NCBI GenBank assembly: GCA_964291625.2
Contig: OZ220089.1
Location: 1,760,001 to 1,824,000 of the forward strand
Direction: 5' to 3'
Source: Candidatus Latescibacterota bacterium
GTDB taxonomy: Bacteria; Latescibacterota; UBA2968; UBA8231
DNA length: 64,000 nt
A model generated the notes under the pieces. It saw only the letters and a list, made by a program, of their open reading frames with translations, was not told the DNA's origin and searched no databases. Positions 44,901-61,454 of the stretch are shown here, piece by piece (the stretch's first letter is position 1; every line of letters starts with the position of its first letter). A program made the position numbers and the translations under genes.

Positions 44901-45113
44901 TGACCACCAGGCCTCGTCGCCCGATACACCTGCACAGCCAATCCTCAGCAGAACTCACTGCGGAGCACCTAGCGGTCTTGGCCTTGCAGGGTCGAACCCG
45001 GGAGCCATCCCGCTCCCCTTATGGACATAGATCGAGTTCTCCCCATGCTCGCCATGTTGCAGAACACACTCGAAGCCGTAGGATTGCACCTCCGCTACGA
45101 GCCTCTTCCCATC
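44901..45113. repeat. Direct repeat A, copy 2
   Basis: Diverged copy of 41140-41349, joined directly to repeat B copy 1 via CCATC microhomology (CTTCCCATCCCATCAAGCG). Confidence 0.9.
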
Positions 45114-45482
45114 CCATCAAGCGCTCCCTGGACCATGGCCTATCCCCGTCAGAGATGTCCTGCCGACACAGACGACGGCTCGCACAAGGATCTCTCCTCG
45201 GAGTCCGCCCCAGCGCCGATGCCCGGACAGCTTTCCAGGAGAGCCAAGGCCCCTTCCTCCAGGGTCGCGATCTCCAGAAGGCGGTCGTGCAGTCGGTCCA
45301 GGATTGACTCCGTCGCTTTCACATGACCCTTCAGGCAGAGGTTTCTCAGGACGAGCCACTTCTGGGTAATCCTTCGCAGTTGGTCCCCCACATGCGTGAG
45401 TCGCGAATCTCCCACAACCTGAGCTGCTGCCTCGAGGTACTTCCCGTGCCGATCTCGCTCTATCACCACGTTTCGCATTTGA
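45114..45482. repeat. Direct repeat B, copy 1 (3' third of the BtrH-like gene)
   Basis: Colinear with 63463-63833 from CCATCAAGCG to GTTTCGCATTTGA, with scattered substitutions. Confidence 0.92.
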
Positions 45483-46207
45483 TAGTACATCTCCTTGAGG
45501 CGAATCCGCGCCTGATCGGCTTCCAGTTCCTTCCAGCAGGCGAAGTCCCGGGCCAGTCGTCGCAGTCCCCCAAGGCCCAGGGATTCCTCGCCCGTGGATG
45601 TCTCCAATCGCATGGCCTCGAGATTTCTCCGGATGGCCCCTACCGCCTGCCCTCGCGTGAGCCTCCAGCGCGGCTCCGGGCAATGATAGTCCATCCAGGT
45701 ATATTGCGGGATACCCTCTGATCCCCAGACTTCCTTGATGGCCGAGAGGGGCAAGTCCCCCCGGAACTGCACAGGCCAGGCAGGGTCGACGACGTGCACC
45801 GTCCCTGCCGCCTCGTCATAGCCGGCGAGAATGATGTAATGCTCCGAGTGACGCCTCCGGTGGCCAGGGAAGTAATGGGTCCGGAGATGGTAAGTGTCGG
45901 CTGCAGCCACCACGGGATGGCCCTGAGCGATCCGCGCTCTGGCATGCGCCCAAGCGGCCTCTCCGTCTGGATCCTGGTGATTTGCTATTCGGATACTGCA
46001 TCTCCGCAGGCTCTCGATAAAAGGAACGAGACGGTCAATGAGGCGCATATCTCCATCTTCAGGTCGCACGTAGCCAAAGACCCATGCATCGTGCAACACG
46101 AGTGGGACGCAGTACCCATGAAACCTGAGAAGGGCCTCCATGGCACTGAGACCGCAAGGGTAGTACTCGCAGTTCCCAAAGGGCACATCCAGCACGATTC
46201 GATTCAT
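45149..46207 (-). CDS. BtrH N-terminal / DUF4872-like protein (papain/C39-like fold, putative ACP-dependent acyltransferase or peptidase)
   Basis: Start MNRIVLDVP. Early Cys (YYPCGLSA), PVVAAADTYHL, HSEHYIILAGYD...VHVVDP (Cys-His-Asp triad pattern), helical C-terminus ending LLEIATLEEGAL. Confidence 0.72.
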   Translation of the reverse strand: MNRIVLDVPFGNCEYYPCGLSAMEALLRFHGYCVPLVLHDAWVFGYVRPEDGDMRLIDRLVPFIESLRRCSIRIANHQDPDGEAAWAHARARIAQGHPVVAAADTYHLRTHYFPGHRRRHSEHYIILAGYDEAAGTVHVVDPAWPVQFRGDLPLSAIKEVWGSEGIPQYTWMDYHCPEPRWRLTRGQAVGAIRRNLEAMRLETSTGEESLGLGGLRRLARDFACWKELEADQARIRLKEMYYQMRNVVIERDRHGKYLEAAAQVVGDSRLTHVGDQLRRITQKWLVLRNLCLKGHVKATESILDRLHDRLLEIATLEEGALALLESCPGIGAGADSEERSLCEPSSVSAGHL

Positions 46208-46809
46208 TGTTCCCCCTTGTGGCAACCGGGGCACTGCAAGGTCATTGCAAAGACGTGCATTCCAGGGTTGTCCGGAAGTTCTATCGCTGCCAGGCACTCC
46301 GTTGGGTCTATGGCTACCGTCTGGAGCCATATACCGTAGTCAACGCCGAGAAGATCGGTATGGACATCGTGCGTGAGGAAGTGATAACCTCGGCATTCAA
46401 TGGCAACGCGCTCTCCGTACTTCAAGTCGTGACGCAGGCGCCAAGAGCTGAATCCCAGAGGCGTCTCATGTTGCCTGCCACTGACATACACGAATCGGAT
46501 GACATCTTCCAGGCTGTTCTCCTCCGCAGCGCCCAGCAGGAAGAGGTTGGCGAACGTGGCTTGCGATACGGAGATGCGTTGTCCTTCCATCGAAATGTTG
46601 TTGTTCAGGCCGTCTCCCTTGTCGGGGAAGCGAAAGGGCACGCCATGGCACACCACCAGAGCATTGGAGGGCGGCAAGTCCTCCGCTGGATAGGTAACTC
46701 CCTGTCCGGCGAAATCGCCATCCCCACGATTGTGGTCGAATGAAATCCCGTCGTTGTTGAAATAGGGAGTCAGGTCGAGAATCTGACAGGCAATCCAGGG
46801 ATTCGTCAT
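46204..46809 (-). CDS. Hypothetical beta-sandwich protein
   Basis: LDLTPYFNNDGIS, TYPAEDLP, GVPFRFP, LFLLGAA, IELPDNPGMHVFAMTL. Resembles accessory domains of some glycosidases. ATGA-coupled on both sides. Confidence 0.55.
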   Translation of the reverse strand: MTNPWIACQILDLTPYFNNDGISFDHNRGDGDFAGQGVTYPAEDLPPSNALVVCHGVPFRFPDKGDGLNNNISMEGQRISVSQATFANLFLLGAAEENSLEDVIRFVYVSGRQHETPLGFSSWRLRHDLKYGERVAIECRGYHFLTHDVHTDLLGVDYGIWLQTVAIDPTECLAAIELPDNPGMHVFAMTLQCPGCHKGEQ

Positions 46810-47117
46810 GGTGATATCGCGCGGTGTGCCGGCAATTTGCTTTCGACGTACTTGCTCAGAGCTTTCACTGAATCGAAGAGCCCTGCCTGCAACTCGTCGT
46901 CCTCTACCTCCAGTCCGAATTCCTCCTCCATGGCGAAGACGATCTCCAAGGTAGCGATCGAGTCCAATCCGAATCCGCCACCGAAGATCGCCTCGTCATC
47001 GGGGATCTCTTCGGGTTTGACCTGAAGTTTGAGCGCCTCAACGATGAGTCTCTTCACCCGCAGGGTTATGTCCGCGTGATTCGCTAAGGGTTTGACCTCG
47101 TCTTGGTCGTGTGACAT
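46806..47117 (-). CDS. Acyl carrier protein (stand-alone)
   Basis: GFGLDSIATLEIVFAMEEEFGLEVED with the phosphopantetheine Ser in the GLDS motif; GAGGA RBS before MSHDQD. Confidence 0.9.
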   Translation of the reverse strand: MSHDQDEVKPLANHADITLRVKRLIVEALKLQVKPEEIPDDEAIFGGGFGLDSIATLEIVFAMEEEFGLEVEDDELQAGLFDSVKALSKYVESKLPAHRAISP

Positions 47118-47204
47118 TCCTCGTTCTCCTGGCAAGCAAGCGATCTTCCACTTCGCACTCAATCTATCACGAATCGTCCAGGGTTCCAATGGCGCCGGCT
47201 GGCG

Positions 47205-50200
47205 TCATGCCGCCCGCAATCCCGGCGCATCCCTTCTCATCAGAAGAAGCGGCACCACCAGCACCAACAGCACAGAGGAAGAGATCAGGCCGCCCGAGGT
47301 CCCGAGGGCCAGGGTGTACCAGAAGTCGGAGCGGTTCCCCTGCAACAGGAGAGGCACGAATCCCACTACCGTGGTGAAGGTGGTGATGAAGATCGGCCGC
47401 AGGCGCTGGAAGGCGGCCCGGATGACGGCCTCCTTGGGGGAAGAAGGCTGTCCCTTGAGGGCGCTGGAAACATGGTGCACGAGCAGGATGGAGTTGTTCA
47501 CGGAAATGCCCATCAGCAGCAACAGCGAGGCGTAGCCGCCCTGGTTGAAGGGGGCGTGTGAAAGGTAGAACCCGGCGCCCACGCCGACGAGGGTCAGGGG
47601 CAGGGCGATGAGCACCAGCAGCGGCTTTGTCCAGGATTCGAACAGGGCCGCGGTGACCATCCAGACCAGCAGGACCGAGAGCAGCAGGATCAGGGCCAGC
47701 TCTCTTTCCTCCCCTTTACTGAATCCCGTCCAGGTCCAGCCTCCCGACAGGCTGTACCCGTACGGCACGGGGGTGTGGTCGAGCAGGTCCTGGACCACTC
47801 TCCTGCTGTACGTCCAGTCCCCGAGGATGGTGAAGCCGACTCTCTTGAGGTAGCGCTGGTTTTCGCGTTGTATCGCCGGCGGCGCCATCTGCTTGCGCAC
47901 CTCGCCCACGTCACCCAGCCGGGCGGCGTGTCCATTCAGGAGAACCTGGTTCAGGGCGCGCAAGTCGGTTTGATCGCCGGCCGTATCGACGACCTCGGCC
48001 GGGTACTGGCGCCGGTCGACGTAGAGGTCTCCGACTTGGGCGCCCCGGTCGAGCCGGGTCTGTATCTCGTCTATGACCTCGGCGTGGTCAATTCCCAGCG
48101 TCGCGGTCCTGGCATGATCGATCCGGGCCAGCATCTCGTAGCTAAGCGAGCCGTGGGCGTAATCCAGGCGGATGTCCTTGATCCTTCGTGAGCGGCGTTC
48201 CCGCAAGCGCTCGGCAACCGCCTCGGAAATCTCACCCACCTTACTGAGATTGTACCCCTTGATCTTTAGCGACCGGGTCACGGAGCGGCTCAGGCTTCGG
48301 CCCGCGGGGTCGAGGTCCTTGCCGTACACCCAGTAGGAGACGCCGCCGAGATTGGCTCCATACGCCACCAGTTGGTCGTAGAGCACGTAGGGCAACTCGG
48401 TCTTTCGGTACTCCTCCTTCAGCAACACCTGGATAAGGCCGCTGCCGCCCCAGGTCTGGGTGATGATTCCCTTGACGTAGGGAGCGAAGGGGTACAACTG
48501 CTTTTCGAAGCCTTGTAAAAGGCCGTCCATCCTGCTTATGTGGGAGTTGCCCGGCATCCTGAGGAACACGCTGAGTGAGAATCCCTCGACCGTCTCCCTC
48601 AGGCGTCCCCTGTAATGACTCCTGTCCAATCGCGAGCTGACGTCGTGGTACAGGTAATAGCTCGCCCCTCCGAACAATCTGAAGAGCACAGGTCTGGCGC
48701 TGCCGATGGCGCCCCACACTCCGTTGTAGAGTTGTGTCCCGCGATCGGCGAGCCGTTCGCGGAGCGAGCCCCAACCCTGCTGCTCGTCGAGATGTGTTAC
48801 ATGACGATCGAGCATGCCGGCGTCGAGAGAGTCCCTTGCCGCCAACCACTTGCGGTACTCCTGGCGCGTTTCCACCTCTCCGGGCGCCTGTCTTTCGACC
48901 CGCCGCGGGCCCTTGCCGATCTCGGGCGGCAGCAGCCAGATCGGAAGCCCCACCATCCACGCCACCAGCCCCAGTACCCATGCCCTGCGCCGCCGACAGC
49001 GGTCGAGGATGCTTCGGTAGCCGCGGTACAGGCGGCCCTCGCCGAAGGGCCGGGGACGGACGAGCGCGGTGCGGCAGAAGAAGACGGGGATCAGGGTGAG
49101 GGAGATGACCAGGGCGAGGGCGAGGGTCAGGCCCAGGGAGAGGGCGAAGGACTTGAAAAACCGCTGCAGCTCTTCGGAGAGAAACAGCACCGGCAGGAAG
49201 GCGCCGAGGGTGGTCAGGTTGGAGACGACGATGGGGTGCGTCACCTCGCGCAGCCCCGCGGCCACGGCCTCCTTGAGATCCCCCTTGCGGACGCAGTCCC
49301 CGGCGCGGCGATGGACGTAGTCGTAGACGACGATGGCGTTGTCGACGATCAGCCCGAAGCCGAGAGTGAGCCCGGCCAGTGTGACGAGGTTGAGGTGCAT
49401 GCCGAACAAGAAGAACAGGCTCATCGCCCCGGTTACGGACAGCACCACCGAGGACAGGATCAGTAGCACGGCCTCCCAGCGCTTGAAGACCGCCAGCAGC
49501 ACCAGTGAAATCAGCAGGATGGAGAAGACGGACCGCCGCAACAGAAAGCGGAGATCGGCCGCTACCTCGGCGCCCTCGTCGTTGAGCACCACGATCTCTG
49601 TTCCAGCGGGCAACCGCGCCGACAGCGCGACGAGTTCTTCCCGCACCCGCCGGGAGGTGGCGGTCATGTCGCTGCCGGCCGCATGGTCGACCTGCACGGC
49701 AACGGCGTTGCGGCCGTTGATCCGATTGAGGACCCGTGGGTCGCCGGGGTGGTAGCGGACGGTGGCGACGTCCCCCAAAGAGAGGACGCGGCCTTCCTCC
49801 AGCCGCTGCAGCGGAATCCGCCGCAGCGCGTCGAGATCCTCGATGCCCCCGGGAACCTCGATGCCGGTGCGGATGCCGTGGCCTTCCGCGGCCCCGAGGG
49901 AACGGGTCTGCATGCCGTGCGTCGCCAGCGCCCCCCTGACCGCGGCGAGGCCGATGCCGAAGCGCCGGGCACGGGCCCGATCCATTTCGATACGGACGCT
50001 CTCCTCCCCGCCGCCGTGCACTGTGACTTCCCGGACACCGGGCAGGGCCTGCAGGGGCAACCGCACCTCCTCCTCCACCAGCTTGCGCAGGTCGCTCGGG
50101 GACACGCCGCCAAGGACATCGAACCGGATAAACCCCCGGATCTCCTGGAGCAGGTCGGGTTCCGAGCGCCGCACCCGCGGCCAGGAGACCCCCTCCGGCC

Positions 50201-50561
50201 GCTCGCGGAAGAAGGAGTATATCCGCTCCCTGAGCTCCAGCTCGGCCAGTTGCAGGTTGGCGTCGCGGGCGAAGTCCGCGGTGACGAAGGCGCTCCCGTG
50301 CGAGGTGGTGGACCTCAACTCCTCGACGGCGCCCACCCCTTGCATGAGGGCTTCGAGGGGGGCGGTGATTCTCGCTTCGATCGCCGTCGCCGGGGCGTCC
50401 TGCCAGTATACGCTCACCGTGAGCCGAGGGGCCTGCACTTCCTCGGAGACGTCGATTGGTATGAGAGGGAAGCTCAGGAGACCCAGGGCGCAGAACGCCG
50501 CTCCGGCCACGCCGACGGCCACGGGCCGGTCGAGCAGGGCGCGAGCGGTTCCTGCACCCAT
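47205..50561 (-). CDS. RND efflux permease subunit (AcrB/AcrD/AcrF family)
   Basis: IEARITAPLE, LAGLTLGFGLIVDNAIVV, ALFESW, GISVNNSIL, RLRPIFITT. Confidence 0.9.
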   Translation of the reverse strand: MGAGTARALLDRPVAVGVAGAAFCALGLLSFPLIPIDVSEEVQAPRLTVSVYWQDAPATAIEARITAPLEALMQGVGAVEELRSTTSHGSAFVTADFARDANLQLAELELRERIYSFFRERPEGVSWPRVRRSEPDLLQEIRGFIRFDVLGGVSPSDLRKLVEEEVRLPLQALPGVREVTVHGGGEESVRIEMDRARARRFGIGLAAVRGALATHGMQTRSLGAAEGHGIRTGIEVPGGIEDLDALRRIPLQRLEEGRVLSLGDVATVRYHPGDPRVLNRINGRNAVAVQVDHAAGSDMTATSRRVREELVALSARLPAGTEIVVLNDEGAEVAADLRFLLRRSVFSILLISLVLLAVFKRWEAVLLILSSVVLSVTGAMSLFFLFGMHLNLVTLAGLTLGFGLIVDNAIVVYDYVHRRAGDCVRKGDLKEAVAAGLREVTHPIVVSNLTTLGAFLPVLFLSEELQRFFKSFALSLGLTLALALVISLTLIPVFFCRTALVRPRPFGEGRLYRGYRSILDRCRRRRAWVLGLVAWMVGLPIWLLPPEIGKGPRRVERQAPGEVETRQEYRKWLAARDSLDAGMLDRHVTHLDEQQGWGSLRERLADRGTQLYNGVWGAIGSARPVLFRLFGGASYYLYHDVSSRLDRSHYRGRLRETVEGFSLSVFLRMPGNSHISRMDGLLQGFEKQLYPFAPYVKGIITQTWGGSGLIQVLLKEEYRKTELPYVLYDQLVAYGANLGGVSYWVYGKDLDPAGRSLSRSVTRSLKIKGYNLSKVGEISEAVAERLRERRSRRIKDIRLDYAHGSLSYEMLARIDHARTATLGIDHAEVIDEIQTRLDRGAQVGDLYVDRRQYPAEVVDTAGDQTDLRALNQVLLNGHAARLGDVGEVRKQMAPPAIQRENQRYLKRVGFTILGDWTYSRRVVQDLLDHTPVPYGYSLSGGWTWTGFSKGEERELALILLLSVLLVWMVTAALFESWTKPLLVLIALPLTLVGVGAGFYLSHAPFNQGGYASLLLLMGISVNNSILLVHHVSSALKGQPSSPKEAVIRAAFQRLRPIFITTFTTVVGFVPLLLQGNRSDFWYTLALGTSGGLISSSVLLVLVVPLLLMRRDAPGLRAA

Positions 50562-50565
50562 ACTT

Positions 50566-53500
50566 TCAGCCCCTCGTCTTGACCACCACCGAGTAGAGCA
50601 GGGGAACGACGACGAGGGTCAGCAGGCTGGCCAGGGTGATGCCGCCGACCACGGCCCAGGCCAAGGGGTGCCGCAGCTCGGCCCCACTGCCGCTGGACAG
50701 GGCCATGGGCAGCAGGCCGCAGACCGTGGTCATGGTGGTCATGCAGATAGGGCGAAAGCGCATGCGGCCGGCTTCGGCAATGGCCGCCCGAAGATCGCCT
50801 CCGACGCGGAAATGCGAGTGGATGAAGTCGACCTTGACGATGGAGTCGTTGACGACGATCCCTACCAGTACGATGCATCCGAGCAGGGACATGACGTTGA
50901 GGCTGTGGCCGGTCAGCCACAGGGTCAACACCACCCCGGCCACCGCCAGCGGAACCGCGGCGACGATGACAAAGGGGACGACGAGGGACTCGAACTGGGC
51001 GGCGAGAATGAAGTAGACGAGAGTCACGGATATGGCGAGAACTACGTACAGGCTGCGGTACTGCTCCTGCCGCTCCGCCTCCTGCGACCCGGTGTCGATC
51101 CAGTAGCCGCCTGGAACTTCCAGGCGATCTAGCAGCGGCGCGAGCCTCGCGTGGGCTTGCGCGAGGTCGATCCCTTCGAGGCCGGCCGTTATGGTGACGG
51201 TGAGCGCGTGGTCTTCGCGGTGGATCTCTTCGTACCCCAAGCCGGGATCGAGCCGGATCAGTTCGGAGAGTGGCACCTCCACGGTCCTGCCTTCCCGACG
51301 GACGGGGTAATGCATGTTGAGCAGGTTCCAGGGGTCCATATCATCACGGCCCTCGGGGAGCAAGCGGATGTCGATGTGTTCGACGAAATCAAGGAATTGG
51401 GTCGGTGTACTTCCCTGCAACTGCCGCTCGATGAAATCGGTGAGGTCAGCAACGCGAATGCCGTAGGTGATGACGGCGTTACGGTCGACCACGAGGTTCA
51501 AGGCGCGCTTGCTGGGCCGCAGATTCGAGCTTGGGTTCACGAATCCTTTCGTCTGCTGCAGGTATTCGACGATCTGACCCCCGAGGTCCGCCAAGGTCTC
51601 CACTCCTGGACCGACGATTCTGAGGTCAAAGGAGGCGTCTCGCGTCTGGAACAAGTGTTCGAAGACAGTTTCCGGCTGTTCCACAACAAAGGTCATCCCG
51701 CTGAAATCGACGAAGACCCGCTCCAGGTCTGCCGCCACCTCCCGGCTACTCATGCCTTCCTCGATTTCGATGTCCATGACCGCCTTGTTCGGACCTGGTT
51801 GACGCTTCAAGTCGACTCTTCCGGTGATGCCGACCGAAGAGAGCACGGACCGCACCCCTTCCTCCTGGAGCAGGAGACGCTCAAGCCGGGTGACTTCCGC
51901 GGTCGTCGCCGCCAGGCTCGCCTCGGCGGGCAATTGTGCACGGACCACGAGGTGTTTCCTGTCTACGGACGGCATGACCTCCCGGTCGAGGTGCTCCGCC
52001 ATCCACACGCTCAACAGCAGCAGAAGCAGCACCGCGCCCAGCACCTTGCCTCGGTGGTCGAGAGCGCGGCTGAGAACTCGCTCGTACAAGGTGGAGATGC
52101 TGCTGAACATGCGCTGGAAAAGGTGGACAGACCAAGTGAACAGGCGCAGGGGGAGTCGCAGTAACAGAAACAGGGCGCGACCGAACAACCGGAAGCAGAA
52201 GCGCACGGGCCGCAGGAATACGGGCGCAGGCCCGCCTGTCCCTGCCTGCGGGCGGCTTGGAACAGAAGCCTCGTTTCCCTGACTCCGTGAGGAGAGCATC
52301 GGCAACAAGGTGATCGATACCAGCAGCGAGACGGCCAGAGACAGGGAGATGGTGACCGCCTGCTGGTAGAAGAGCGCCCCGGCGATTCCTTCGACGTACA
52401 CCATGGGCATGAAGACGGCCATGGTGGTCAGGGTCGAGGCGGTGATGGCCAAGCCCACCTCCGTGGTACCGGTAACGGCAGCTTCGCCAGGGGCAAGTCC
52501 CGTTTCGCGATGGCGGTATATGTTCTCGAACACGACGATAGAGTTGTCCACCAAGATGCCCATGGCCAAGGCCAGCCCGCCAAGGGATATGATGTTGAAG
52601 TGAATGTCGAGGAGATACATGAGGACGAAGGTGGTCACCATGGAGACCGGTATCGACAGACCGACGACGAGCGGATTCCTCAGATCCCGGAGGAAGTAGA
52701 CGAGGGTGAGGATGGCGAACACTGAGCCGAGATAGAGCGCCTGCAGGACGCTGTCTATCGACTCGCGGATGAACTCCGCCTGGTCGAAGACCGCCCGCAC
52801 GGCGAAATCGGGGTAGTCTCGGGAGAACCGGTAGAGGTCGCCGTACACCCTGCGCGAGGTCTTGACGGTGTTGGCTCCGGCCTCCTTGAACAGGTGCAGG
52901 GTGATGACCTCGTGGCCATTGAAACGGGTGTATCCACGGCGCTGCTGGTACCCCTCCTCGATGCGGGCGACCTCCTTGAGGCGGATCAGGCGGGGCTCAA
53001 GTCTCACGGGGATCTGCCGGATTTCGTCGAGGCTGGTGAACTCCGCCTGTATTCTCAGGGGAAACTCTGAATACCCGTCGCGAATGACGCCGCCGAGGCC
53101 TGCAACGTTGAACTGCTCCAGGCTCCTTTCCACCTCGGTGAAACCGACACCGTAGCGGCGGCTTTTCTCGACGTCGAGGAAGACGTTGATCTCGCGGTCG
53201 AGACCGCCGGCCACCTGCACCCAGGCCACACCGTCGAGTTGCTCGAGCCGGCGCTTGACGACCGCCTCGGCGACTCCTTTCAGCTCCGTCAGAGCCTCAT
53301 GGTAATCCCGGGTGGAGCGGGGGTTCTCGACCCTTTCCCCGGTGACGACCAGCGTCATCACAGGTGCCGCGGAAGGGTCGAAACGCAGGATGTTGGGATG
53401 GTCGGCGGCCCTCGGCAGACGTACTTGGTCGAGATAACCGCGCAATTGGATGAAGCCGAGGTCCATGTCGCTTCCCCAGCGGAAGCGGACGTCCACCAAG

Positions 53501-53766
53501 GAGAGGCCATCCCGCGAAACCGACTCGATGCGGCTCACACCGCTTACGGCGCTGATCGTGGCCTCGAGCGGACTGGTGACGTACTCATCCACATCGCGGA
53601 CGTTCATGCCCGGCACATCCGTGCGCACAAGGAGCCGGGGCACGTCAATCTCGGGCAGAAAGTCAACGCTCAGCCGGAAGAAGGAGTAGACCCCCATCAT
53701 GGCCGCGGCCAGGAAACAGACCGTGGTCGCCACCGGCCGATGCACTGCGAACCTCACGACACGCAT
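50566..53766 (-). CDS. RND efflux permease subunit (AcrB/AcrD/AcrF family)
   Basis: AVHRPVAT, SLGGLALAMGILVDNSIVVFENI, LAAQFES, GIVVNDSI, RFRPICMTT. Confidence 0.93.
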   Translation of the reverse strand: MRVVRFAVHRPVATTVCFLAAAMMGVYSFFRLSVDFLPEIDVPRLLVRTDVPGMNVRDVDEYVTSPLEATISAVSGVSRIESVSRDGLSLVDVRFRWGSDMDLGFIQLRGYLDQVRLPRAADHPNILRFDPSAAPVMTLVVTGERVENPRSTRDYHEALTELKGVAEAVVKRRLEQLDGVAWVQVAGGLDREINVFLDVEKSRRYGVGFTEVERSLEQFNVAGLGGVIRDGYSEFPLRIQAEFTSLDEIRQIPVRLEPRLIRLKEVARIEEGYQQRRGYTRFNGHEVITLHLFKEAGANTVKTSRRVYGDLYRFSRDYPDFAVRAVFDQAEFIRESIDSVLQALYLGSVFAILTLVYFLRDLRNPLVVGLSIPVSMVTTFVLMYLLDIHFNIISLGGLALAMGILVDNSIVVFENIYRHRETGLAPGEAAVTGTTEVGLAITASTLTTMAVFMPMVYVEGIAGALFYQQAVTISLSLAVSLLVSITLLPMLSSRSQGNEASVPSRPQAGTGGPAPVFLRPVRFCFRLFGRALFLLLRLPLRLFTWSVHLFQRMFSSISTLYERVLSRALDHRGKVLGAVLLLLLLSVWMAEHLDREVMPSVDRKHLVVRAQLPAEASLAATTAEVTRLERLLLQEEGVRSVLSSVGITGRVDLKRQPGPNKAVMDIEIEEGMSSREVAADLERVFVDFSGMTFVVEQPETVFEHLFQTRDASFDLRIVGPGVETLADLGGQIVEYLQQTKGFVNPSSNLRPSKRALNLVVDRNAVITYGIRVADLTDFIERQLQGSTPTQFLDFVEHIDIRLLPEGRDDMDPWNLLNMHYPVRREGRTVEVPLSELIRLDPGLGYEEIHREDHALTVTITAGLEGIDLAQAHARLAPLLDRLEVPGGYWIDTGSQEAERQEQYRSLYVVLAISVTLVYFILAAQFESLVVPFVIVAAVPLAVAGVVLTLWLTGHSLNVMSLLGCIVLVGIVVNDSIVKVDFIHSHFRVGGDLRAAIAEAGRMRFRPICMTTMTTVCGLLPMALSSGSGAELRHPLAWAVVGGITLASLLTLVVVPLLYSVVVKTRG

Positions 53767-53778
53767 GATGGCAGGGTC

Positions 53779-54969
53779 TCAGTCCTGGACCACCACTATC
53801 TTGGCGTCGTGGCCCAGGTTGAAGTGGCCGGCCACGATCAGCTCCTCGCCTTCGCTCACCCCTTCGGTGATCTCGATGAAGTCGTCGTTCTCCAGCCCGG
53901 TCTTGACGTAGCGCCACTTCGCCAGCCCTCCCTCGCGCACGAACAGAAGTTTGCGGTCATCGCGCACGAGGAGGGCGTCCCGGGGCACGAGCAGCCGCCG
54001 CACGAACAGCCTCGTCTCGACCGCGACCTGCGCGAACATGCCTGGCTTGATGCGGTGGCCGGGGTTGTCGATGCGGATGCGGACATCGCAGGTCCCGCTC
54101 TCCGGGTCGACTACCGGGCTGACCGCCGCAATGACCCCCCGGAACTGCTCCCCGGGGAAGGCATGGGGTCGGATGGAGACTTCGGCGCCGGCCTGCACCA
54201 GGCGCAACTCGCTCTCGAGGATGCCGACTTCGAGCAGCAGCGGATCGGGGGCCACCAGCCGCATCAGCTTGCCGCCTTGCGAGATCGTGCCGTTGAGGGT
54301 TGCCTCCAGCCCGGTCACGTACGCGTCAAACGGGGCTCTGACCACGGTATGCTCGAGGTCGAGCTCGGCCCGTCGCAGGCCGAGCCGAGCCCGGGTGAGT
54401 CCCGTGGTGCTGGCGATCCACTCCTTGGGCGCGTACTCGGCGAACAACCTCAGGGCGGTACGGTCATTGGGATCAGTCGTGTCGGCCGCCGCCGCGATCT
54501 CATCCCGGACGCGGCCGGTTCGTTGCAGTTGCCTGCTCAGCAGGGCGACCGAGGCGTACTCCCGGGCCGAGCGAGTCACTACGTCCCTGGCCAGCAGGCA
54601 GGCAATCTCGTACGGCTCCGGATCGATCTCAAGAACGAGATCCCCTTCGCGCACGAAGCTGCCCTCATCGACGGCAAGACGGATCACCGGCCCCGACACC
54701 CGGGCGACGAGATCGGTCTCGCGGTGGGCGATGAAGACGCCACCCGAGGAGATCCGCTGTACGAGGTCGCGACGGCGGATCTCTTCCACGGCCACCGGCG
54801 TTACCGGGGGCTCGATCGGGGGCAGCTCGTCGAGCGCGCGCCCTTTTTCGAGCGAAATCTCGTCCGCCCCGCCTGCATCCGTGCCTGTCGACGTGGAGTC
54901 ATCGACCAACGCCCACACCGAGAGCCCCACCCCGAGCCCCAGGAGCACGTAGAGGAGGTTCTTCAACAT
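53779..54969 (-). CDS. RND periplasmic adaptor (membrane fusion protein)
   Basis: N-terminal TM, RVSG.V..LAVDEG..V.EGD, VRAPFD, ISPVVD-like, IKPGMFA, VKTGL. Confidence 0.92.
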   Translation of the reverse strand: MLKNLLYVLLGLGVGLSVWALVDDSTSTGTDAGGADEISLEKGRALDELPPIEPPVTPVAVEEIRRRDLVQRISSGGVFIAHRETDLVARVSGPVIRLAVDEGSFVREGDLVLEIDPEPYEIACLLARDVVTRSAREYASVALLSRQLQRTGRVRDEIAAAADTTDPNDRTALRLFAEYAPKEWIASTTGLTRARLGLRRAELDLEHTVVRAPFDAYVTGLEATLNGTISQGGKLMRLVAPDPLLLEVGILESELRLVQAGAEVSIRPHAFPGEQFRGVIAAVSPVVDPESGTCDVRIRIDNPGHRIKPGMFAQVAVETRLFVRRLLVPRDALLVRDDRKLLFVREGGLAKWRYVKTGLENDDFIEITEGVSEGEELIVAGHFNLGHDAKIVVVQD

Positions 54970-54978
54970 GAAGTGACG

Positions 54979-56868
54979 CTACTTCTTCTTGTCGGCGAAA
55001 TACTCGACCACTACCTCGACGGCCTTCTCAATACCGGCCTCGGAGGCGATCGATACAGCCGGCCGGTCGAAGGTCTCTTCGAGGTGCCGCAGCTTGCGAC
55101 GGCTGTCTTCCTCGGGCATCTGCCGGGGTTTGATCGAAGTGCGTCCGTACGCCTCGCGCACATGCTTCGCCTTGTCGCTCATGGCCAGCAGCAGGACCGG
55201 GGCCTGGGATATGGCCCGAATGCCGTCCATAGTGTCCCGTATATAGTCGTCGGTGTCCACGCTGTTGACCACGAGCAGGCAGGCGTCCGGCTTGACTCCC
55301 ATCAGGAAGGCGAGGGAGGGCAGGGTGTGGGTCTGGGGTTCGCTGACGTTGTAGGGCACGGTGCCGGACTGGCTGCCGGCCAGGATCAGGTGCGGGCTCC
55401 TGCGACGGTTGATTTCGCGTAGCTTGGCGTCGAGGTAGGGGGCGTAGAAATCGAAGGGTATCTCCACCGACGGGGCGTACCCTATCGGGAACGCGCAGTC
55501 CATGCCAAACAGCCCGGAGTGATGCTCCGTGCCGAGCTGGCCAACCCGGTAGCCCAGTTCCTGCAGGCGGCGGCGCAATCCCAGTTGCAGGGTGAACTTG
55601 CCCTGCTGCGAACTGGTGCCCATGACCGCGATCACCGGCACGTCCACCGCAGGGTACTGCGACGCCGAGTCGAGGGTGTGCCGCGCTTCTTCCGCCGACA
55701 GCGCGGGATAGTACAGGCGAAGCCCCTTGCTTTCTGCCCGTTCGTACAGGTCGGCGTAGCGCTCGCGCGGCAGCGCAAGCAGGCTGAAGACGTGAACGCC
55801 CTGCTCCAGCGCCTCCTCGACGGCTTCGCGCAGCACATCTCTATTTCGGATGCGGCCCAGCTCATCTACGTACCCGAGGATGAGGGTGTCGGCCCCCTGC
55901 AGGGCCGCGGCGAGGCGAGGGGCGATGCGCAGGCCGGCCGAGGACAGGCCGACCGCCTTGGCGGCGTCCTTTCCGACCAGACCCTTCCCGGCTGGATCGG
56001 CCACACCGACGATCTCGAAGCCGAGCAGGTCGCGCGCCCGCACCAAGGCGTGCATCTCCTTGTTGTAGGGGTAAAGGGCCGCTTTCCCGATCCAGGCGAA
56101 TGAGTCCTCCGTTCCGTGTGGTTCTGAAGGTTTGGTTGCTTTGGGCGGGGCCGGCTCAGGGTGGGCATTGGCCTGCAACAGTGCCCGCATCTGCCCCAAG
56201 GAGGCACATGGGTGTGCCTCGCGGATCAGGGCGAGCAGACCGCTAATATGGGGGGCGGCAAAGCTGGTGCCCCCGAGCAGGATCTCGCGCGGCTCCAGCC
56301 AGCAGAGCCGCTGCGGGTCGCCACGGGCCAGGCACTCGATAGCCGCGCCGACGCGGTAGTGGTACTTGTAGAGACCGCGCACCTTGCCCGCTCCGACGCC
56401 TATGACTTGGGGCAACAGGGCCGGCCAGCTCTCCCGGCCTTCTTCGTGCTCGGCCGCGACGAGCAAGACGCCTTGGTCCACGGCCTCTTGGCAGACCTCC
56501 TCCAGGGCGTCGCGATGCCCCACCTCGGTGGTTCCCAGGCTCAGGTTGACGAGGTCCATTCCCTGGTCCACCGCCCATTTGATGGCCGCGATCAGCAGGC
56601 GGGGGTCGGCTGCAAGGGATTCATCGAAAATCCGTACGCTGTGCAGCTCGGCCTCGGATGCCTTGCGGCGGACAAGCCCGGCGCAGGCGGTACCGTGGCC
56701 GGCGCAATCGGAGTAGTCGTCGCTTTGTACCGGTTCGCCGGCCGGCCCCAAGCTCAGGCCGACGCCGCCGGCCACCGGCCCGACTTTGGGGTGGTCGGGA
56801 ACTATACCGCTGTCGACCACCGCCACCTTGACGCCTCGTCCGGTCCGGTTCGCAAAGGGAAACTTCAT
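54979..56868 (-). CDS. S8 (subtilisin-like) peptidase fused to a DUF1611-like P-loop domain
   Basis: Start MKFPF. Catalytic triad VAVVDSG / GHGTACAG / GTSFAAPH. No signal peptide. C-terminal half KAALYPYNKEMHAL...PVIAVMGTSSQQGKFTLQL.LRR.L...GYRVGQLGTE. Confidence 0.85.
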   Translation of the reverse strand: MKFPFANRTGRGVKVAVVDSGIVPDHPKVGPVAGGVGLSLGPAGEPVQSDDYSDCAGHGTACAGLVRRKASEAELHSVRIFDESLAADPRLLIAAIKWAVDQGMDLVNLSLGTTEVGHRDALEEVCQEAVDQGVLLVAAEHEEGRESWPALLPQVIGVGAGKVRGLYKYHYRVGAAIECLARGDPQRLCWLEPREILLGGTSFAAPHISGLLALIREAHPCASLGQMRALLQANAHPEPAPPKATKPSEPHGTEDSFAWIGKAALYPYNKEMHALVRARDLLGFEIVGVADPAGKGLVGKDAAKAVGLSSAGLRIAPRLAAALQGADTLILGYVDELGRIRNRDVLREAVEEALEQGVHVFSLLALPRERYADLYERAESKGLRLYYPALSAEEARHTLDSASQYPAVDVPVIAVMGTSSQQGKFTLQLGLRRRLQELGYRVGQLGTEHHSGLFGMDCAFPIGYAPSVEIPFDFYAPYLDAKLREINRRRSPHLILAGSQSGTVPYNVSEPQTHTLPSLAFLMGVKPDACLLVVNSVDTDDYIRDTMDGIRAISQAPVLLLAMSDKAKHVREAYGRTSIKPRQMPEEDSRRKLRHLEETFDRPAVSIASEAGIEKAVEVVVEYFADKKK

Positions 56869-58664
56869 GGGGCTACCGCCGCGCTGGTGCGGGCCTCGCC
56901 TTGCTGGTGAACAAACCGCGCGTAATACCCGTGCCGCGAAAGGAGGACGGCGGGCGAGCCTTGCTCCACCACTCGGCCCTCGGACAGGCAGATCACCTCG
57001 TCCACCCCCTGCACGGCGCTGAGCCGGTGGCTGATCAGGAGAATCGTCTTGTCGTGAAACCGTTGCCCCAGGAGACGGATGATTGCTTCCTCGCTCTCCG
57101 CGTCCAGCGCCGAGGTCGCTTCGTCGAGGATAAGCAACTCCTTCGGCCACAACAGGGTCCGCGCCAAGGCGATCCGCTGTTGCTGGCCACCGGAGAGTTG
57201 CCCGCCTTGCTCCCCGACCTTCGCCTCCACATCCAGATCGTTCAGGCGGACCTGTTGGATCACCTGCTCAATCTCCGCCGGGTCGCGCTGGAAATTGCCG
57301 TAGCGGACGTTGTTCTGGATCGTATCGTCGAACAGGTGGACTTGCTGGCTTACCAAGCCGACCTGCTCCCGCAGCTCGCGCAGGCTGATCTCCTCGAGCG
57401 GCACCCCGTCTACGAGAATGCGGCCCTGGCCGGGTTGATAGAATGCACATAGCAGATGCGCCAGGGTCGTCTTGCCGACGCCGCTCAGGCCGACAAGGGC
57501 ATACGTCTTGCCCTTGACCAGTTCCAGGTTCAGGCCCTGCAAGACGGGTTGGTCGTCGAAACGAAAATGAACGTCCTGCAGTTCAATCGCGTGCTCATAG
57601 GTGAACGACCGGTGGCCTCTGTGTGTGTCTTCCTGGGTCGGAACCTGCATGAACTCCAGCACTCGCCGCATCGAAACCAAACCCCGTACGAGGCTCATGT
57701 AGAGATTGTGCAGTCCCTGGATCGGGCCGAACAGGCGCCTGGTGTATTGAAGGAAGGCAATCAGGGTACCGAGCGTCATGACGCCCTGTATCACCTGATA
57801 CCCGCCCCAGCCGAGGATCACCGCCGGGGTCATCATGACCAGCCCCGACGAAACCGTGCTCATGGAAACCGAGTAGCGGACATTCCGCATGGCAATGGTG
57901 ATCATCGCATTTATGGCCGAGGCGAAACGACCGGTCTCGTGGCCGTCACTGTTGGCGAGTTGGATCAGCGGTACGTTGGTGAACCGCTCGATGGTAAAGC
58001 TGGAAATCCCGGCTCCCTGCTGCTGCAAGGATTCGACGGTCTCTCTGATTCGTGGTTGAAAGTACAGCAGGTTGCCTACGAACAGGGGAACGACCGTGAT
58101 GGAGAGCAGAAACAAGGTGACGTTCAGCCAGCACAAAACGATCACCAAGCCGATCAGGGTCAGGATGCTGTGCAGGAAACGGAGCACGCTCGAGGTCAAG
58201 ACCGATTGGACTACTCCCACGTCGTTGTTCAGCCGAAAGACCAGTTCCCCGGTTTTCTGCCGGTGATGAAAGTCGATCGGCAGGTTCACAAGATGTCGAA
58301 AGAGATCTACCCGTATGTCCCGCACAACGCGATTGCCAGCCCAGTTATACAGATAGTTGGACGAAGCAGAGAGAACCAATCGAGTCGCGCCAAGGATCAA
58401 CAATACGGCGAGGGCCATCAACAATGAATCGAGCTGTCTAGACGGCAGTACATCATCGATGATGACCTTGATGATATACGGCGGCGCCAAGGAGAGGGCG
58501 GTCACACAGAGCACACAGAGCAGTACGAACAGCCATTGGTACCAGTAAGGGAGCAGGTACCGAATGAACCAGATGGCTATGGACCGGGCGGTCGCGGAAT
58601 CAGACACCCTGGCCTCCATTAGACGAATGTAGGGAATCCACCGATTTTCCCCCTTAAGGGACAT
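56865..58664 (-). CDS. ABC exporter, fused TMD + NBD (no C39 domain)
   Basis: TM domain, Walker A GLSGVGKT, LSGGQQQR, LILDEATSALD, ISHR. Alternative start at 58619. Confidence 0.93.
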   Translation of the reverse strand: MSLKGENRWIPYIRLMEARVSDSATARSIAIWFIRYLLPYWYQWLFVLLCVLCVTALSLAPPYIIKVIIDDVLPSRQLDSLLMALAVLLILGATRLVLSASSNYLYNWAGNRVVRDIRVDLFRHLVNLPIDFHHRQKTGELVFRLNNDVGVVQSVLTSSVLRFLHSILTLIGLVIVLCWLNVTLFLLSITVVPLFVGNLLYFQPRIRETVESLQQQGAGISSFTIERFTNVPLIQLANSDGHETGRFASAINAMITIAMRNVRYSVSMSTVSSGLVMMTPAVILGWGGYQVIQGVMTLGTLIAFLQYTRRLFGPIQGLHNLYMSLVRGLVSMRRVLEFMQVPTQEDTHRGHRSFTYEHAIELQDVHFRFDDQPVLQGLNLELVKGKTYALVGLSGVGKTTLAHLLCAFYQPGQGRILVDGVPLEEISLRELREQVGLVSQQVHLFDDTIQNNVRYGNFQRDPAEIEQVIQQVRLNDLDVEAKVGEQGGQLSGGQQQRIALARTLLWPKELLILDEATSALDAESEEAIIRLLGQRFHDKTILLISHRLSAVQGVDEVICLSEGRVVEQGSPAVLLSRHGYYARFVHQQGEARTSAAVAP

Positions 58665-58859
58665 CTACTTTCGCGCACCCCGCGATCCGTCCCTCGGCAT
58701 CCCTGGAGGAATCGTTCCTCAGCCAAGGGGGCCGCGCATGACCAAGTTGCGGGACGAAGATCTGGTGTGTGTGCGCAAGTCTTGACCGTCCAAGGCGGTC
58801 ACAGCGTTCGCTCGTGATTCGGACGTGGATCCAGGGGACAGCACGAGCGTCTGCAAGCG

Positions 58860-59182
58860 GGCCAGCGGCCTGAGCCGGTGCGGGCCTTTACGACACCCTG
58901 GTCCGCGAGCACGGCCACCGGGGGACCTACAAGGCGGTGGCCTATGTGCGCCGCCGCCGGCCGCCGCCGAAGGTGCGGCCCCTGCGTCGGGTGGAGGTGC
59001 GGCCGGGCAGCCAGGCGCAGGTAGGACTGGGTCGAGCCCTGGGTGCACGTGCTCGAGTTTGCACGGTCGCACCCGGCTGAGCGCCTTCAGCCTCTCGCTC
59101 AGCTCTTCGCGCATGTGGTCGGTGCAGTGGCGGCTCGACCAGCGCCAGCTGTCCTGGCAGGAGGCCCACACAATCGCGCCTT
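58860..59182 (+). mobile_element. IS21-family istA transposase remnant (frameshifted)
   Basis: Across frames reads LYDTLVREHGHRGTYKAV..YVRRRRPPPKVRP..RRVEVRPGSQAQV/DW...LSAFSLSLSSSRMWSVQWRLDQRQLSWQEAH. Cut off by an IS3 end at 59183. Confidence 0.72.
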
Positions 59183-59320
59183 TGGAGTTGACCCGCTTTG
59201 GTGGACACGCCATCTCTTGATGAAGAAAAAGGGAGGGCTGTCCAACCATGCCGAAACGCGCCCCTCACCCGCCGGAGTCCCGGCAACAGATATGATCAAG
59301 CTTGGGGCCGGCCGAGCAGG
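59183..59320 (+). mobile_element. IS3-family left end with degenerate orfA start
   Basis: TGGAGTTGACCCGCTTTGGTGGACA terminal repeat, then RBS and ATG 59248 (MPKRAPHPPESRQQ). Closely matches the reverse complement of 62266-62330. Confidence 0.75.
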
Positions 59321-59749
59321 GTCTCGGTGGAGGGGAACCTGCCGCCGCTGGAGGAGCTGCAGTCGCTGCTGCCTTCGACCCGGCTGGGGGGGGACCCGGG
59401 CCTGGGGGGTGGCGCCACCGCAGAATCGGTCTTCGCTGGAGGTCTCCGGGCCCTCAAAGAGCGGTGCTACGAGGGGTCGCACCTCCTCGGTGTACTGCTG
59501 CGTCCGTCGCCCCCGCCCCCGAGAAACTTCGATGTGACGTGGATACACCCGTTGGACCCACCAAGGGAGGCCAGCAGATCCTCAATCTGGGAGCCCAACT
59601 GCTAATCCCATCAATGGAAGGCAAAGTAGCTGCCCGGGCTTTCCCCGTTTCCGCCGAGGTGCCCCCACCCAAGCAAGCGCAGATGGGACCTGGGTCGTGC
59701 GCATGCCGAGGCGGGGGCACCAGGCCAAGGAAGGACGACTGAGCGCCCC

Positions 59750-59983
59750 TCAGTCGTCCTCCTCCTCCGGACAAGGGTCAGCCTCACAGGTACTGACACA
59801 CGAACCGTCGCCTGCCGAGCAGACGTCTTCGGTGGCCGAGGACATCACGCACGCAGTGATCTGCTTGAAACACGGCACACTCTCATAGACGATTGTAGTC
59901 ACCACCCAGGATAGGTGCTCCTCCGAGTAGGCAAGGACCGCGTGGTTGCGCCTTGCAGGCGACTTTTTTGTGAGGGCTCTCAT
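59750..59983 (-). CDS. Cys-rich 77-aa peptide, candidate RiPP precursor (CLI_3235-like leader)
   Basis: GGGAGG RBS; MRALTKKSPARRNHAVLAY-SEEHLSWVVTTIVYESVPCFKQITACVMSSATEDVCSAGDGSCVSTCEADPCPEEEDD; six Cys; co-oriented with the maturation/export genes. Confidence 0.7.
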   Translation of the reverse strand: MRALTKKSPARRNHAVLAYSEEHLSWVVTTIVYESVPCFKQITACVMSSATEDVCSAGDGSCVSTCEADPCPEEEDD

Positions 59984-60063
59984 TGGAGATGCCTCCCTTT
60001 TGAGTAGAGGATGATGAATGATAACTCTAGGTTTCAATTTGAAACCTAAGAAGTTGAGGGTTG

Positions 60064-61248
60064 CTAACCCCCGCGTCCTGAAGCCAAGGCAATTCCGTAC
60101 AGTTCGATGGTCCCATTGGAGATCTCTGACTCTTCTTCTGATGGAGGTCTCCAAATACAAAGCTGATCCTCCCAAGCTGCAATCCTGTTCCAAGGCGCGT
60201 GTACGGCCAACGGGCGGATACGCTCCTCCCAATCTGGAGTAAGACCGTACACCTTGATTGTCGACGCCCCATCCCCTTCAAGGTCGTAGATAGCCCATCC
60301 TCGGTCCGTGGCGTGAAGAACAAGTAGGTATCTATCTTGGAACAAAGTCATTCTCCTCAGGAGAGTCATCCCCGAACTCATCAATTCAGTCATCAACTCC
60401 CTGGTGCCAGTACCAACATCGTGGAATCGCCCAGGTAAGGGAGTAAACCCTTCGGGACGGAAGCCAAACCTTCTTGTGATCTCTCCTGTAGCGGCGTCAA
60501 TCTCCTTTACATGGTATTCATTAACCCCCAAGTAGTACAGCCGATGCCGGGAGGTGCTGTAACACAAGTGATACAAGCGACCCAGCCGAGCCGCTAGAAA
60601 CCGATCTCTGTCCGTGGAAACAGGAGTCTGATAGCTCATCTCCCAAGTCTTGGGATCAAGGCGCGACACCGTCACGTAACGCTCCCTTCCCAACACAAAC
60701 AGCTCTCCCTCCCGTCCGGTTAAGACACGTGTATCATCATAGCCTGTCCATTGATCCAAGTAACTTCCAAGCCGATCATATCGGATGACACCCGCAGTGT
60801 GTAGAAGGTAAACGAAACCGTTAGGAGGATCCATGGAAATAGCAAGCGGTGAAGTATACTCACCCGGCCCGGCCCCCTTCCTCCCAAATGACCGAATGTA
60901 GCGTCCGTCAAGCAAGCTGAATTCATGTGCCGCTTGGCCAACCCCATCAACGAGCAACAAGCTGCTGTCAGGGGATACGCTCATCCAATCCACCGATCCG
61001 ATGGCTGGCGCCTCTTCGTCCAAGGCCAGTTCGACCTGGCCGTGGAAGATTAGACCAATCTCGCCTGCGGGTTGTACCGGCGTCTCCAGAATGCTGGATT
61101 CATCGACCCCCTCTACTGGGCCGCTGACGAGCACCCAGGCGAGCACCAGAGTTCGGACGTATGAAAGCACCTTATTCGCAACGCAACTCCGGGATGGCTG
61201 ACCAGATCGCCGATTGTGGCGATCGGAGGGGAGAGGGAGATATCTCAT
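60064..61248 (-). CDS. 6-bladed beta-propeller (NHL-like) exported protein
   Basis: Signal-like segment VRTLVLAWVLVSG, IGSVDWMSV, YIRSFGRKGAGPGEY motif. True start probably downstream of 61248. Confidence 0.75.
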   Translation of the reverse strand: MRYLPLPSDRHNRRSGQPSRSCVANKVLSYVRTLVLAWVLVSGPVEGVDESSILETPVQPAGEIGLIFHGQVELALDEEAPAIGSVDWMSVSPDSSLLLVDGVGQAAHEFSLLDGRYIRSFGRKGAGPGEYTSPLAISMDPPNGFVYLLHTAGVIRYDRLGSYLDQWTGYDDTRVLTGREGELFVLGRERYVTVSRLDPKTWEMSYQTPVSTDRDRFLAARLGRLYHLCYSTSRHRLYYLGVNEYHVKEIDAATGEITRRFGFRPEGFTPLPGRFHDVGTGTRELMTELMSSGMTLLRRMTLFQDRYLLVLHATDRGWAIYDLEGDGASTIKVYGLTPDWEERIRPLAVHAPWNRIAAWEDQLCIWRPPSEEESEISNGTIELYGIALASGRGG

Positions 61249-61454
61249 ATGGGATCGTAATCCTGACTGTTAAGGGATGTAGGGGTCAATACCCCTGGAC
61301 GCTCACCGTCCACTTTTCACATGCTGAGTATAGCGCCACAGCGCGACCCAATCCAATAGACGCATCTTTGGTAGTCGCCTTGTGAAACTATGATTTCCGC
61401 CTTGTGCAATGTCGAGTTTCTCCTCTAATCGCTCGCCCCAGATTCTCGTTGGAA

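Follow-up and report, generated by a model that had tools for sequence, protein, structure and literature searches.

Proteins of the TIGR04066 and TIGR04069 families sit in cysteine-rich peptide clusters of Firmicutes, and for the SacP23 cluster the roles offered for them are a guess of 'immunity', in work limited to heterologous expression of the peptide (PMC10731318). QhpE cuts the leader from QhpC in the cytoplasm before export through the ATP-binding cassette (ABC) transporter QhpF (PMC7876137); the papain-like ligases CtaG, BtrH and AsbE use a Cys-His-Asp triad to accept acyl groups from carrier proteins (PMC12865890); and AziU3/U2 is an aziridine synthase that acts by sulfate displacement/elimination (PMC12559475). 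Here we describe a 64,000-nucleotide stretch of a Candidatus Latescibacterota genome (GenBank assembly GCA_964291625.2, contig OZ220089.1, positions 1,760,001 to 1,824,000; hereafter the window, numbered from its first nucleotide), which carries at 45149-61248 ten genes, among them those for a small Cys-rich peptide, an S8 peptidase fused to a DUF1611 protein, an acyl carrier protein (ACP) and a pair of proteins related to AziU2 and AziU3. The system is an uncharacterised variant of the maturation systems known for peptides made by the ribosome and modified after translation (RiPPs), and a literature search covering papers without their supplements returned none on a fused S8-DUF1611 protein or on an AziU2/U3-like pair in a ribosomal peptide cluster. 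The balance tips slightly in favor of a cluster that matures and exports the small Cys-rich peptide by means of an ACP-dependent enzyme set. This reading is carried by the precursor family, the conserved gene set and the intact catalytic motifs, from which we infer the individual steps of the mechanism.

A recurrent gene set around the S8-DUF1611 fusion

A preliminary description of this DNA had listed ten co-oriented genes with assigned domains, several of them ATGA-coupled. All ten open reading frames (ORFs) were found there on the minus strand, hidden Markov model (HMM) scans confirmed the domains, and reading the junctions directly verified three ATGA overlaps (ABC/fusion, ACP/201-amino-acid (aa) protein gene, and 201-aa protein gene/BtrH-like gene). 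A scan of one genome per species yielded 30 loci containing the fusion gene, 26 in Latescibacterota, 2 in Gemmatimonadota and 2 in Bacillota, of which four (L012, L030, L037 and L039) are short or cut; for the gene counts in these loci, the window proteins and accessory proteins of relatives served as tblastn queries. The ACP gene lies directly 3' of the fusion gene in 22 of the 30 loci, across three phyla and including a Bacillota metagenome-assembled genome (MAG), and an ABC gene (≥40% identity) lies upstream of it in 18. The BtrH-like gene, the gene for the membrane fusion protein (MFP) and the gene for the first permease of the resistance-nodulation-division (RND) type were each detected in 11 loci, and those for the second RND permease and the 201-aa (AziU2-like) protein in 10 each. 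Ten loci (L010, L011, L012, L014-L019 and L038) hold fusion, ACP, BtrH-like, MFP and RND genes together.

At the level of the phylum, matches to the fusion occur in 89 of 168 genomes (27 of the 52 high-quality ones), with up to 7 per genome. The 201-aa family has 40 matches in 32 of the 168 genomes; for 17 of these the distance to a fusion gene is at most 0.8 kb, and for a further 9 it is up to 22 kb on one contig, the other 14 being elsewhere, on other contigs or in genomes that have no fusion match. Judged from this recurrence, the gene set is a real conserved cluster that is common in Latescibacterota.

The preliminary description had proposed that the small Cys-rich ORF at 59750-59983 (77 aa, 6 Cys, with GGGAGG located 8 nt 5' of its ATG) is a peptide precursor, and alignment with relatives bore this out by uncovering a conserved leader. 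In related loci, small ORFs situated between the genes for the propeller and the ABC transporter share an N-terminal motif with the window ORF, and an HMM of this leader (E<0.01) found precursor relatives in 10 of the 30 loci. In an alignment of 12 sequences, M1, L4, Y19, W26, C38 and C45 are invariant and K6 is nearly so. The leader consensus MxxLxKKTPxRRNxxIxAYxxEGxxW is followed by a core that varies in length and sequence; it is acidic, Cys-rich and hypervariable (33% mean column identity), with a recurrent C-x-x-G-D in which the third Cys is followed by x-x-G-D in most members. By its conserved leader and variable Cys-rich core, the small ORF is classed as a member of a precursor family. 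A precursor of this build, encoded beside a protease, modifying enzymes and an exporter, has the general features by which a RiPP cluster is known from genes alone. The window precursor, its paralog and the L010 precursor had no NCBIfam match at E up to 0.01.

The precursor gene is paired with a gene for a β-propeller protein at 60064-61248, which has a weak six-bladed DUF5128 match (24.9 bits) and lies upstream of the fusion gene in 11 of the 30 loci. Its AlphaFold model (predicted local distance difference test score, pLDDT, 84) has a helix at residues 20-41 followed by the propeller; the best fold matches are the exported protein BF0058 and NHL domains, and the fold search returned generic NHL/WD40 neighbors only, with no functional lead. 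The gene is also duplicated jointly with the precursor gene just past the window end. On the predicted model, the protein is a membrane-anchored, six-bladed, NHL-like propeller paired with the precursor gene; it may be a binding or immunity partner of the product, which is a guess. Between the propeller stop and the precursor start there is an inverted repeat with a 10-bp stem (TTAGGTTTCAAATTGAAACCTAG, 60027-60049), which may be a regulatory or processing site.

Predicted enzymes and the proposed pathway

The ORF listed for the fusion protein spans 54979-57150. As both the starts of homologs and the ATGA overlap with the ABC gene place the start at 56868, we revised the gene to 54979-56868, encoding 629 aa. 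Its Peptidase_S8 match (90.7 bits; cut-off 21.8) and its two DUF1611 matches (PF07755 and PF17396; 43.7 bits against a cut-off of 25 and 29.8 against 22.6) place it in these Pfam families. Both the S8 triad (D19/H58/S202) and a P-loop, G417-T418...Q422-G423-K424-F425 (G-T-S-S-Q-Q-G-K-F), which we take to be of the BioD/CobQ style, are invariant in 23 of 23 fusion sequences. For the S8 part the best named model was QhpE (NF049966), at 149.4 bits against a cut-off of 165, so that QhpE is the nearest named model and not a family assignment. No signal peptide is visible at the N-terminus, and the protease is presumed to be cytoplasmic.

The C-terminal part of the fusion spans positions 2-360 of the 361 in TIGR04066, at 114.7 bits against a cut-off of 200. 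A Foldseek search with the AlphaFold model of this part (pLDDT 84.7) returned 2g0t (TM0796), 7xrj (DgcN) and 2obn (Ava_3511) at ranks 1-7, with E 2.3e-13 and a template modeling (TM) score of 0.58-0.64 for DgcN; the next tier comprised the G-proteins IcmF/MeaB and the succinyl-CoA synthetase alpha subunit. On this model, the DUF1611 part would fold like DgcN, an N-acetyltransferase that depends on acetyl-CoA, and would include a Rossmann half of the CoA-binding type. Among 8000 candidates scored, at least 405 protein clusters belong to the fusion family at E up to 1e-10, and both Pfam domains are present in all 120 homologs listed. Existing annotations call its members no more than "S8 family serine peptidase" or misname them as an epimerase. 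This is thus a large, unnamed family, found in roughly every second genome of a little-studied phylum and often in several copies.

Prediction of a complex between the fusion and the precursor gave a score of 0.49 (runs 0.27, 0.49 and 0.55), with 0.00 for the best of three controls, contact agreement between runs of at least 60% and partner pLDDT of at least 42. In the benchmark for this score, 58 of 80 solved complexes came up to the mark, as did 2 of 110 mismatched pairs; of those that did so, just 7 of the 80 solved complexes, along with both mismatches, had scores of 0.60 or below. The prediction gives weak support to an interaction between the fusion and the precursor.

The ACP gene (ORF 46806-47189, likely 46806-47117 with a start codon at 47117) encodes a PP-binding protein (36.4 bits; cut-off 20.8) whose phosphopantetheine serine, GLDS in the window, is kept in all 21 homologs listed. 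This type of ACP has only two copies in the genome, each near a fusion gene, and three matches to phosphopantetheinyl transferases are found elsewhere in the genome. The preliminary description had expected a lipopeptide-like product. We found nothing that indicates a lipid, and no acyl-activating or fatty-acid enzyme domain was present among the 29 ORFs at 37.6-64 kb that made up our Pfam scan for neighboring domains. Among related loci, L025 encodes a second ACP along with an AMP-binding enzyme at a distance of 6 kb, and in two Latescibacterota loci a 904-907-aa protein is encoded directly 3' of the fusion and ACP genes (L032:12249-14963 and L034:12210-14933). The L032 protein, which was the one scanned, has PP-binding and non-ribosomal peptide synthetase (NRPS) condensation domains, and its N-terminal ~350 aa have no match. 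From its domains, the L032/L034 protein would likewise be an amide-bond former, encoded in the place after the ACP. In L032 an Rce1-like CAAX protease gene precedes the fusion gene.

The next two genes encode what is, by homology, a papain-fold pair. The 201-aa protein (46204-46809), left as an unknown in the preliminary description, has no Pfam or NCBIfam match and aligns over residues 9-193 with Azi28 (8gs1_A, E 3.1e-14) and AziU2 (7wuw_A, E 3.6e-14) among PDB sequences; we therefore regard it as a homolog of AziU2. Its partner (ORF 45149-46330, likely 45149-46207 with a start codon at 46207) matches BtrH_N (57.5 bits; cut-off 29.7) and DUF4872 (34.9; cut-off 28), and is nearest AziU3, with E 9.6e-06 for the single sequence and 1.2e-09 for the profile. 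These alignments to AziU3 begin at residue ~88-104, past the position of the cysteine. All 11 BtrH-like sequences compared, including a distant paralog in the same genome, keep the residues C18, H123 and D141, so that the protein has the BtrH/CtaG-type architecture of BtrH_N, DUF4872 and a Cys-His-Asp triad. At the same time, the two adjacent, ATGA-coupled genes are homologous to both subunits of AziU3/U2, and a profile of the BtrH-like protein did not detect CtaG at E up to 1. BtrH-type acyl transfer, as proposed in the preliminary description, therefore remains plausible given the triad, but it is not the sole reading, as the pair is homologous to the two-subunit aziridine synthase AziU2/AziU3.

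Export would be served by four further genes. The ABC half-transporter (56865-58664; ABC_membrane 156 bits, ABC_tran 117 bits) is MsbA/HlyB-like, has no C39 peptidase domain, and scores below the cut-off of every NCBIfam model. The periplasmic adaptor, or MFP (53779-54969), scores 169.2 bits with the RND adaptor model TIGR01730 (cut-off 94.9). RND permease 1 (50566-53766; ACR_tran 743.7 bits) is MdtB/MdtC-like and permease 2 (47205-50561; ACR_tran 442.5 bits) is a divergent paralog; the best equivalog models for permease 1 are MdtC and MdtB, and both permeases score below the cut-offs of these models.

Taken together, these proteins suggest the following pathway. In the cytoplasm, the S8 domain would take off the precursor leader, as QhpE does for QhpC. 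The fused DUF1611 domain would then act on the phosphopantetheine arm of the dedicated ACP, and the AziU2-like/AziU3-like pair, with its Cys-His-Asp residues, would transfer the ACP-borne group to the peptide or reshape it there. The product would pass to the periplasm through the ABC half-transporter and be expelled from the cell by the adaptor and the two MdtABC-like RND permeases. More specifically, and as a tentative possibility that we would not wager on, the cluster could be a hybrid of ribosomal and thiotemplated assembly, in which the ACP holds a building block that a two-subunit, papain-like ligase (AziU2/U3-like), together with a phosphopantetheine-binding DUF1611 domain, joins to the leader-less Cys-rich peptide, an NRPS condensation domain taking this part in sister loci. 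If true, this would be a new RiPP class and the first peptide-maturation function for DUF1611/TIGR04066 proteins.

Once solved, the chemistry would give a function to DUF1611/TIGR04066 proteins and their partner carrier protein, which are unexplained in Firmicutes bacteriocin clusters as well, and would show whether the papain-like ligase/AziU3 fold works on ribosomal peptides. It would also open a variable family of Cys-rich peptides to activity screening, which makes the cluster a good target for natural-product discovery.

Several genes that recur in related loci may bear on what happens to the exported peptide. A gene for a thioredoxin-like protein with an N-terminal membrane helix and a CQPC motif is present in 16 of the 30 loci, at the position of a non-coding gap in the window, and a rhodanese with an N-terminal helix is encoded in 12, L010 and L017 having both genes; MauE/DoxX and Yip1 proteins also recur. 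In relatives, the thioredoxin-like, rhodanese and MauE/DoxX genes would suit thiol chemistry in the periplasm, acting on a Cys-rich peptide after its export. Neither the thioredoxin-like nor the rhodanese gene had a tblastn match (E up to 1e-3) in the window-numbered interval 40-78 kb. The 1.08-kb gap between the precursor and ABC genes (58665-59749) has ORFs with no Pfam match, and its bases 1-518 (58665-59182) are 89-91% identical to C1:1302136-1302771 and C1:1530323-1530958. We considered a degraded thioredoxin-like or rhodanese gene in this 58.7-59.7 kb gap and rejected it, as tblastn found no match and repeat DNA lies there instead.

In four of the 30 loci there is a QhpD/PapB-like radical S-adenosylmethionine (SAM) gene, for which the nearest models are the thioether-forming maturases PapB, SCIFF and QhpD, all below their cut-offs. 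A radical SAM enzyme acting in trans was also considered for the present genome and rejected, as none of the ranthipeptide/CcpM type was found in it: the best genome match to CcpM scored 83.7 bits against a cut-off of 500 and lies ~1.2 Mb away at C1:555588, and a search of the genome with the L018 radical SAM gene found only this same C1:555588. In an Erysipelotrichaceae MAG (L039:104-694), an AgrB homolog and a radical SAM/SPASM gene are located just upstream of the fusion gene. A histidine kinase and a sigma-54 response regulator are encoded at 42644-44958 on the minus strand, as assigned by the domain scan. Such a pair is located 3' of the fusion gene in 5 of the 30 loci, with a match to the regulator in 7, and it probably controls expression of the cluster.

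Alternative explanations and the history of the locus

A number of observations weigh against an ACP-dependent peptide maturation cluster as we propose it. AziU3/U2, the nearest solved relative of the pair, is described as structurally similar to CtaG and functionally unrelated to the ligases (PMC12865890). The ACP has no obvious loader among the 29 scanned ORFs: AMP-binding, ketosynthase and acyltransferase domains, like those of fatty-acid enzymes, were missing from them. The ACP gene is not adjacent to the fusion gene in 8 of the 30 loci. A profile of the DUF1611 part run against PDB sequences found only 2g0t (E 1.8e-05) and no DgcN. The modules of the window cluster are a mosaic, with the fusion, ABC and RND proteins closest to those of L010 and L017 (75-76% for the fusion) and the 201-aa protein closest to those of L025/L013 (55-58%, versus 31-35% for L010/L017). 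Finally, the window copy is without the thioredoxin-like and rhodanese genes, and repeat DNA lies between its precursor and ABC genes; it may therefore be impaired.

The strongest rival explanation is that the pair carries out non-acyl chemistry, an elimination or ring closure as in AziU3/U2, with the peptide or a small molecule bound to the ACP as substrate, and would leave a strained or cyclised group and no acyl cap. Among solved structures, only AziU2 and AziU3 are related to the pair in sequence (E 3.6e-14 and 1.2e-09), the ATGA-coupled order of the two genes mirrors a two-subunit enzyme, and the sequence search did not recover CtaG at E up to 1. We nevertheless judge this unlikely, as the Cys-His-Asp residues are kept in 11 of 11 sequences as in the ligases CtaG, BtrH and AsbE, a dedicated ACP suits a thioester donor, and no sulfotransferase domain occurs among the 29 scanned ORFs, the remainder of the genome not having been searched for one. 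That the ACP and the pair, perhaps with DUF1611, make a separate small molecule, the island and efflux pump being merely shared with a disulfide-bonded bacteriocin, would account for the shuffled position of the pair relative to the RND genes among loci, for its distance of 10-21 kb from the fusion gene in the second type of cluster described below, and for the 14 of 40 AziU2-like matches that are not near a fusion gene. It is decidedly improbable, however, when all 120 homologs listed have DUF1611 and the peptide protease in one polypeptide, the ACP gene directly follows the fusion gene in most loci and in three phyla (22/30), and Firmicutes TIGR04066/TIGR04069 proteins sit in Cys-rich peptide clusters (PMC10731318).

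We see a slim chance that the cluster matures a crosslinked peptide subunit or a cofactor-bearing peptide for the producer's own periplasm, in the manner of QhpCDEF, and not a secreted product. Such a role would agree with QhpE as the nearest relative of the S8 part, with an ABC exporter in the place of QhpF, with the radical SAM genes of four loci and with the MauE/DoxX, thioredoxin-like and rhodanese genes of relatives; it sits poorly with the hypervariable core, the up to 7 fusion matches per genome and the dedicated RND efflux pump, and neither dehydrogenase subunits among the scanned ORFs nor a QhpD/PapB-like radical SAM gene in this genome was found. The preliminary description had named a chance juxtaposition of unrelated genes as the outcome that would overturn it. 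The region is plastic, with low GC content, repeats and segmental duplications, but 10 of 30 independent loci repeat this set and most others hold part of it (ACP in 22, BtrH-like in 11, MFP and RND in 11), three ATGA couplings link its genes, and fusion and AziU2-like genes lie close together across the phylum. As the gene set recurs in the 30 loci and is co-located phylum-wide, this objection fails, and juxtaposition by chance on a genomic island, which we rejected, is hardly credible.

The cluster in the window is a rearranged, probably laterally acquired copy on a low-GC island. The GC content is 0.52-0.69 over the cluster, compared with 0.70-0.74 at 36-40 kb and 42.5-44.5 kb. A GC content below that of the flanks, as had been described, thus applies to the left flank and not to the right flank inside the window, which is GC-poor too, as the island extends there. 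Other genomes of the same genus have only a second fusion type, 48% identical, and the fusion type of the window is closest (75-77%) to that of another genus of the same family; this speaks for lateral acquisition when the lower GC is considered as well. At the transition from high to low GC left of the cluster there are an amidase and a SAM-dependent methyltransferase (37589-39670 / 41194-42048), for which no link to the cluster was seen.

The order of genes has also changed, as the AziU2/AziU3-like pair precedes the RND genes in most loci and follows them in the window and in L013. A minus-strand 3' fragment of a second BtrH-like gene at 63503-63952 is 71% identical in aa sequence to residues 254-393 of the intact protein, and the DNA at 63463-63833 is 93% identical to that at 45114-45482; the fragment is a remnant of an earlier arrangement or of a duplication. 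Beyond the window end, G000:C1:1824333-1825791 (window-equivalent 64333-65791) encodes a second intact propeller with 80.5% aa identity. This propeller gene and a second precursor gene (52% identity, GTG start, 4 Cys) lie within a 1.5-kb duplicate that is 84% identical to 59916-61400. The histidine kinase gene at 44000-44823 has a 96.7%-identical copy 24 kb away at G000:C1:1828397-1829220, and a copy of the sigma-54 regulator beyond the window end, with 97% aa identity, appears to be split at residue 486/487.

The genome contains a second cluster, cluster B, at G000:C1:3451972-3480295 (L007, L008), which is 47% identical. Its genes encode a Yip1-like protein, the S8-DUF1611 fusion, two permeases of the MacB type, an ABC ATPase, and an ACP of 44% identity. 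The ACP gene lies 4 kb from the fusion gene, and the AziU2/U3-like pair 21 kb off, past the genes for a UvrD/PD-(D/E)XK helicase and a C5 DNA methylase. Within L007 17700-19300, the ORFs of 30 aa or more included no Cys-rich precursor.

Comparison with described systems

The preliminary description had likened this cluster to clostridial Cys-rich peptide systems. The likeness holds to the extent that the alignment of the DUF1611 part to TIGR04066 runs from one end to the other, but all four family models fail, and membership in the TIGR04065/66/68/69 system is rejected on HMM scores: the window precursor did not match TIGR04065, and the 15 families that the window ACP matched at E up to 0.01 did not include TIGR04069 (cut-off 70 bits). 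In Bacillota, the relatives of L035 and L039 score 86.3 and 73.3 bits with TIGR04066, and the L035 ACP 22.1 bits with TIGR04069. Like the CLI_3235-type clusters of clostridia and Paenibacillus, which were defined by bioinformatics and include that of SacP23, the window has a Cys-rich leader peptide, a TIGR04066-type DUF1611 protein, an adjacent carrier protein, an S8 protease and an ABC exporter. Unlike them, it has S8 and DUF1611 fused and no radical SAM gene, with the AziU2/U3-like pair, the RND pump and the propeller added.

With QhpCDEF the cluster would share a cytoplasmic subtilisin-like leader peptidase followed by efflux-ABC export of a small Cys/Asp/Glu-rich peptide, and QhpD/PapB-like radical SAM genes stand beside the fusion gene in 4 of the 30 loci. 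It differs from that system in having no QhpA/B/D/G genes and a variable core, whereas the qhp operon is without ACP, DUF1611 and RND genes. DgcN (7xrj), which bears the NCBIfam name N-acetyltransferase, uses a phosphopantetheine-containing donor and has the same two-domain fold as that modeled for the DUF1611 part, but it is a stand-alone enzyme of D-glutamate catabolism with no ACP or protease partner, and its model NF041892 gave 23.3 bits against a cut-off of 480.

As in AziU3/AziU2 (Azi29/Azi28) of azinomycin, adjacent genes encode a papain-fold subunit and a ~200-aa partner, both homologous to their counterparts. That homology is distant (E 1e-09 and 3e-14), and the context is a ribosomal peptide and an ACP in contrast to a polyketide/non-ribosomal small molecule. 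With CtaG, BtrH and AsbE the cluster shares the BtrH_N and DUF4872 domains and the Cys-His-Asp triad, along with a carrier protein of its own. Those enzymes are single proteins of non-ribosomal pathways, whereas in the window there is a second subunit and the likely acceptor is a ribosomal peptide.

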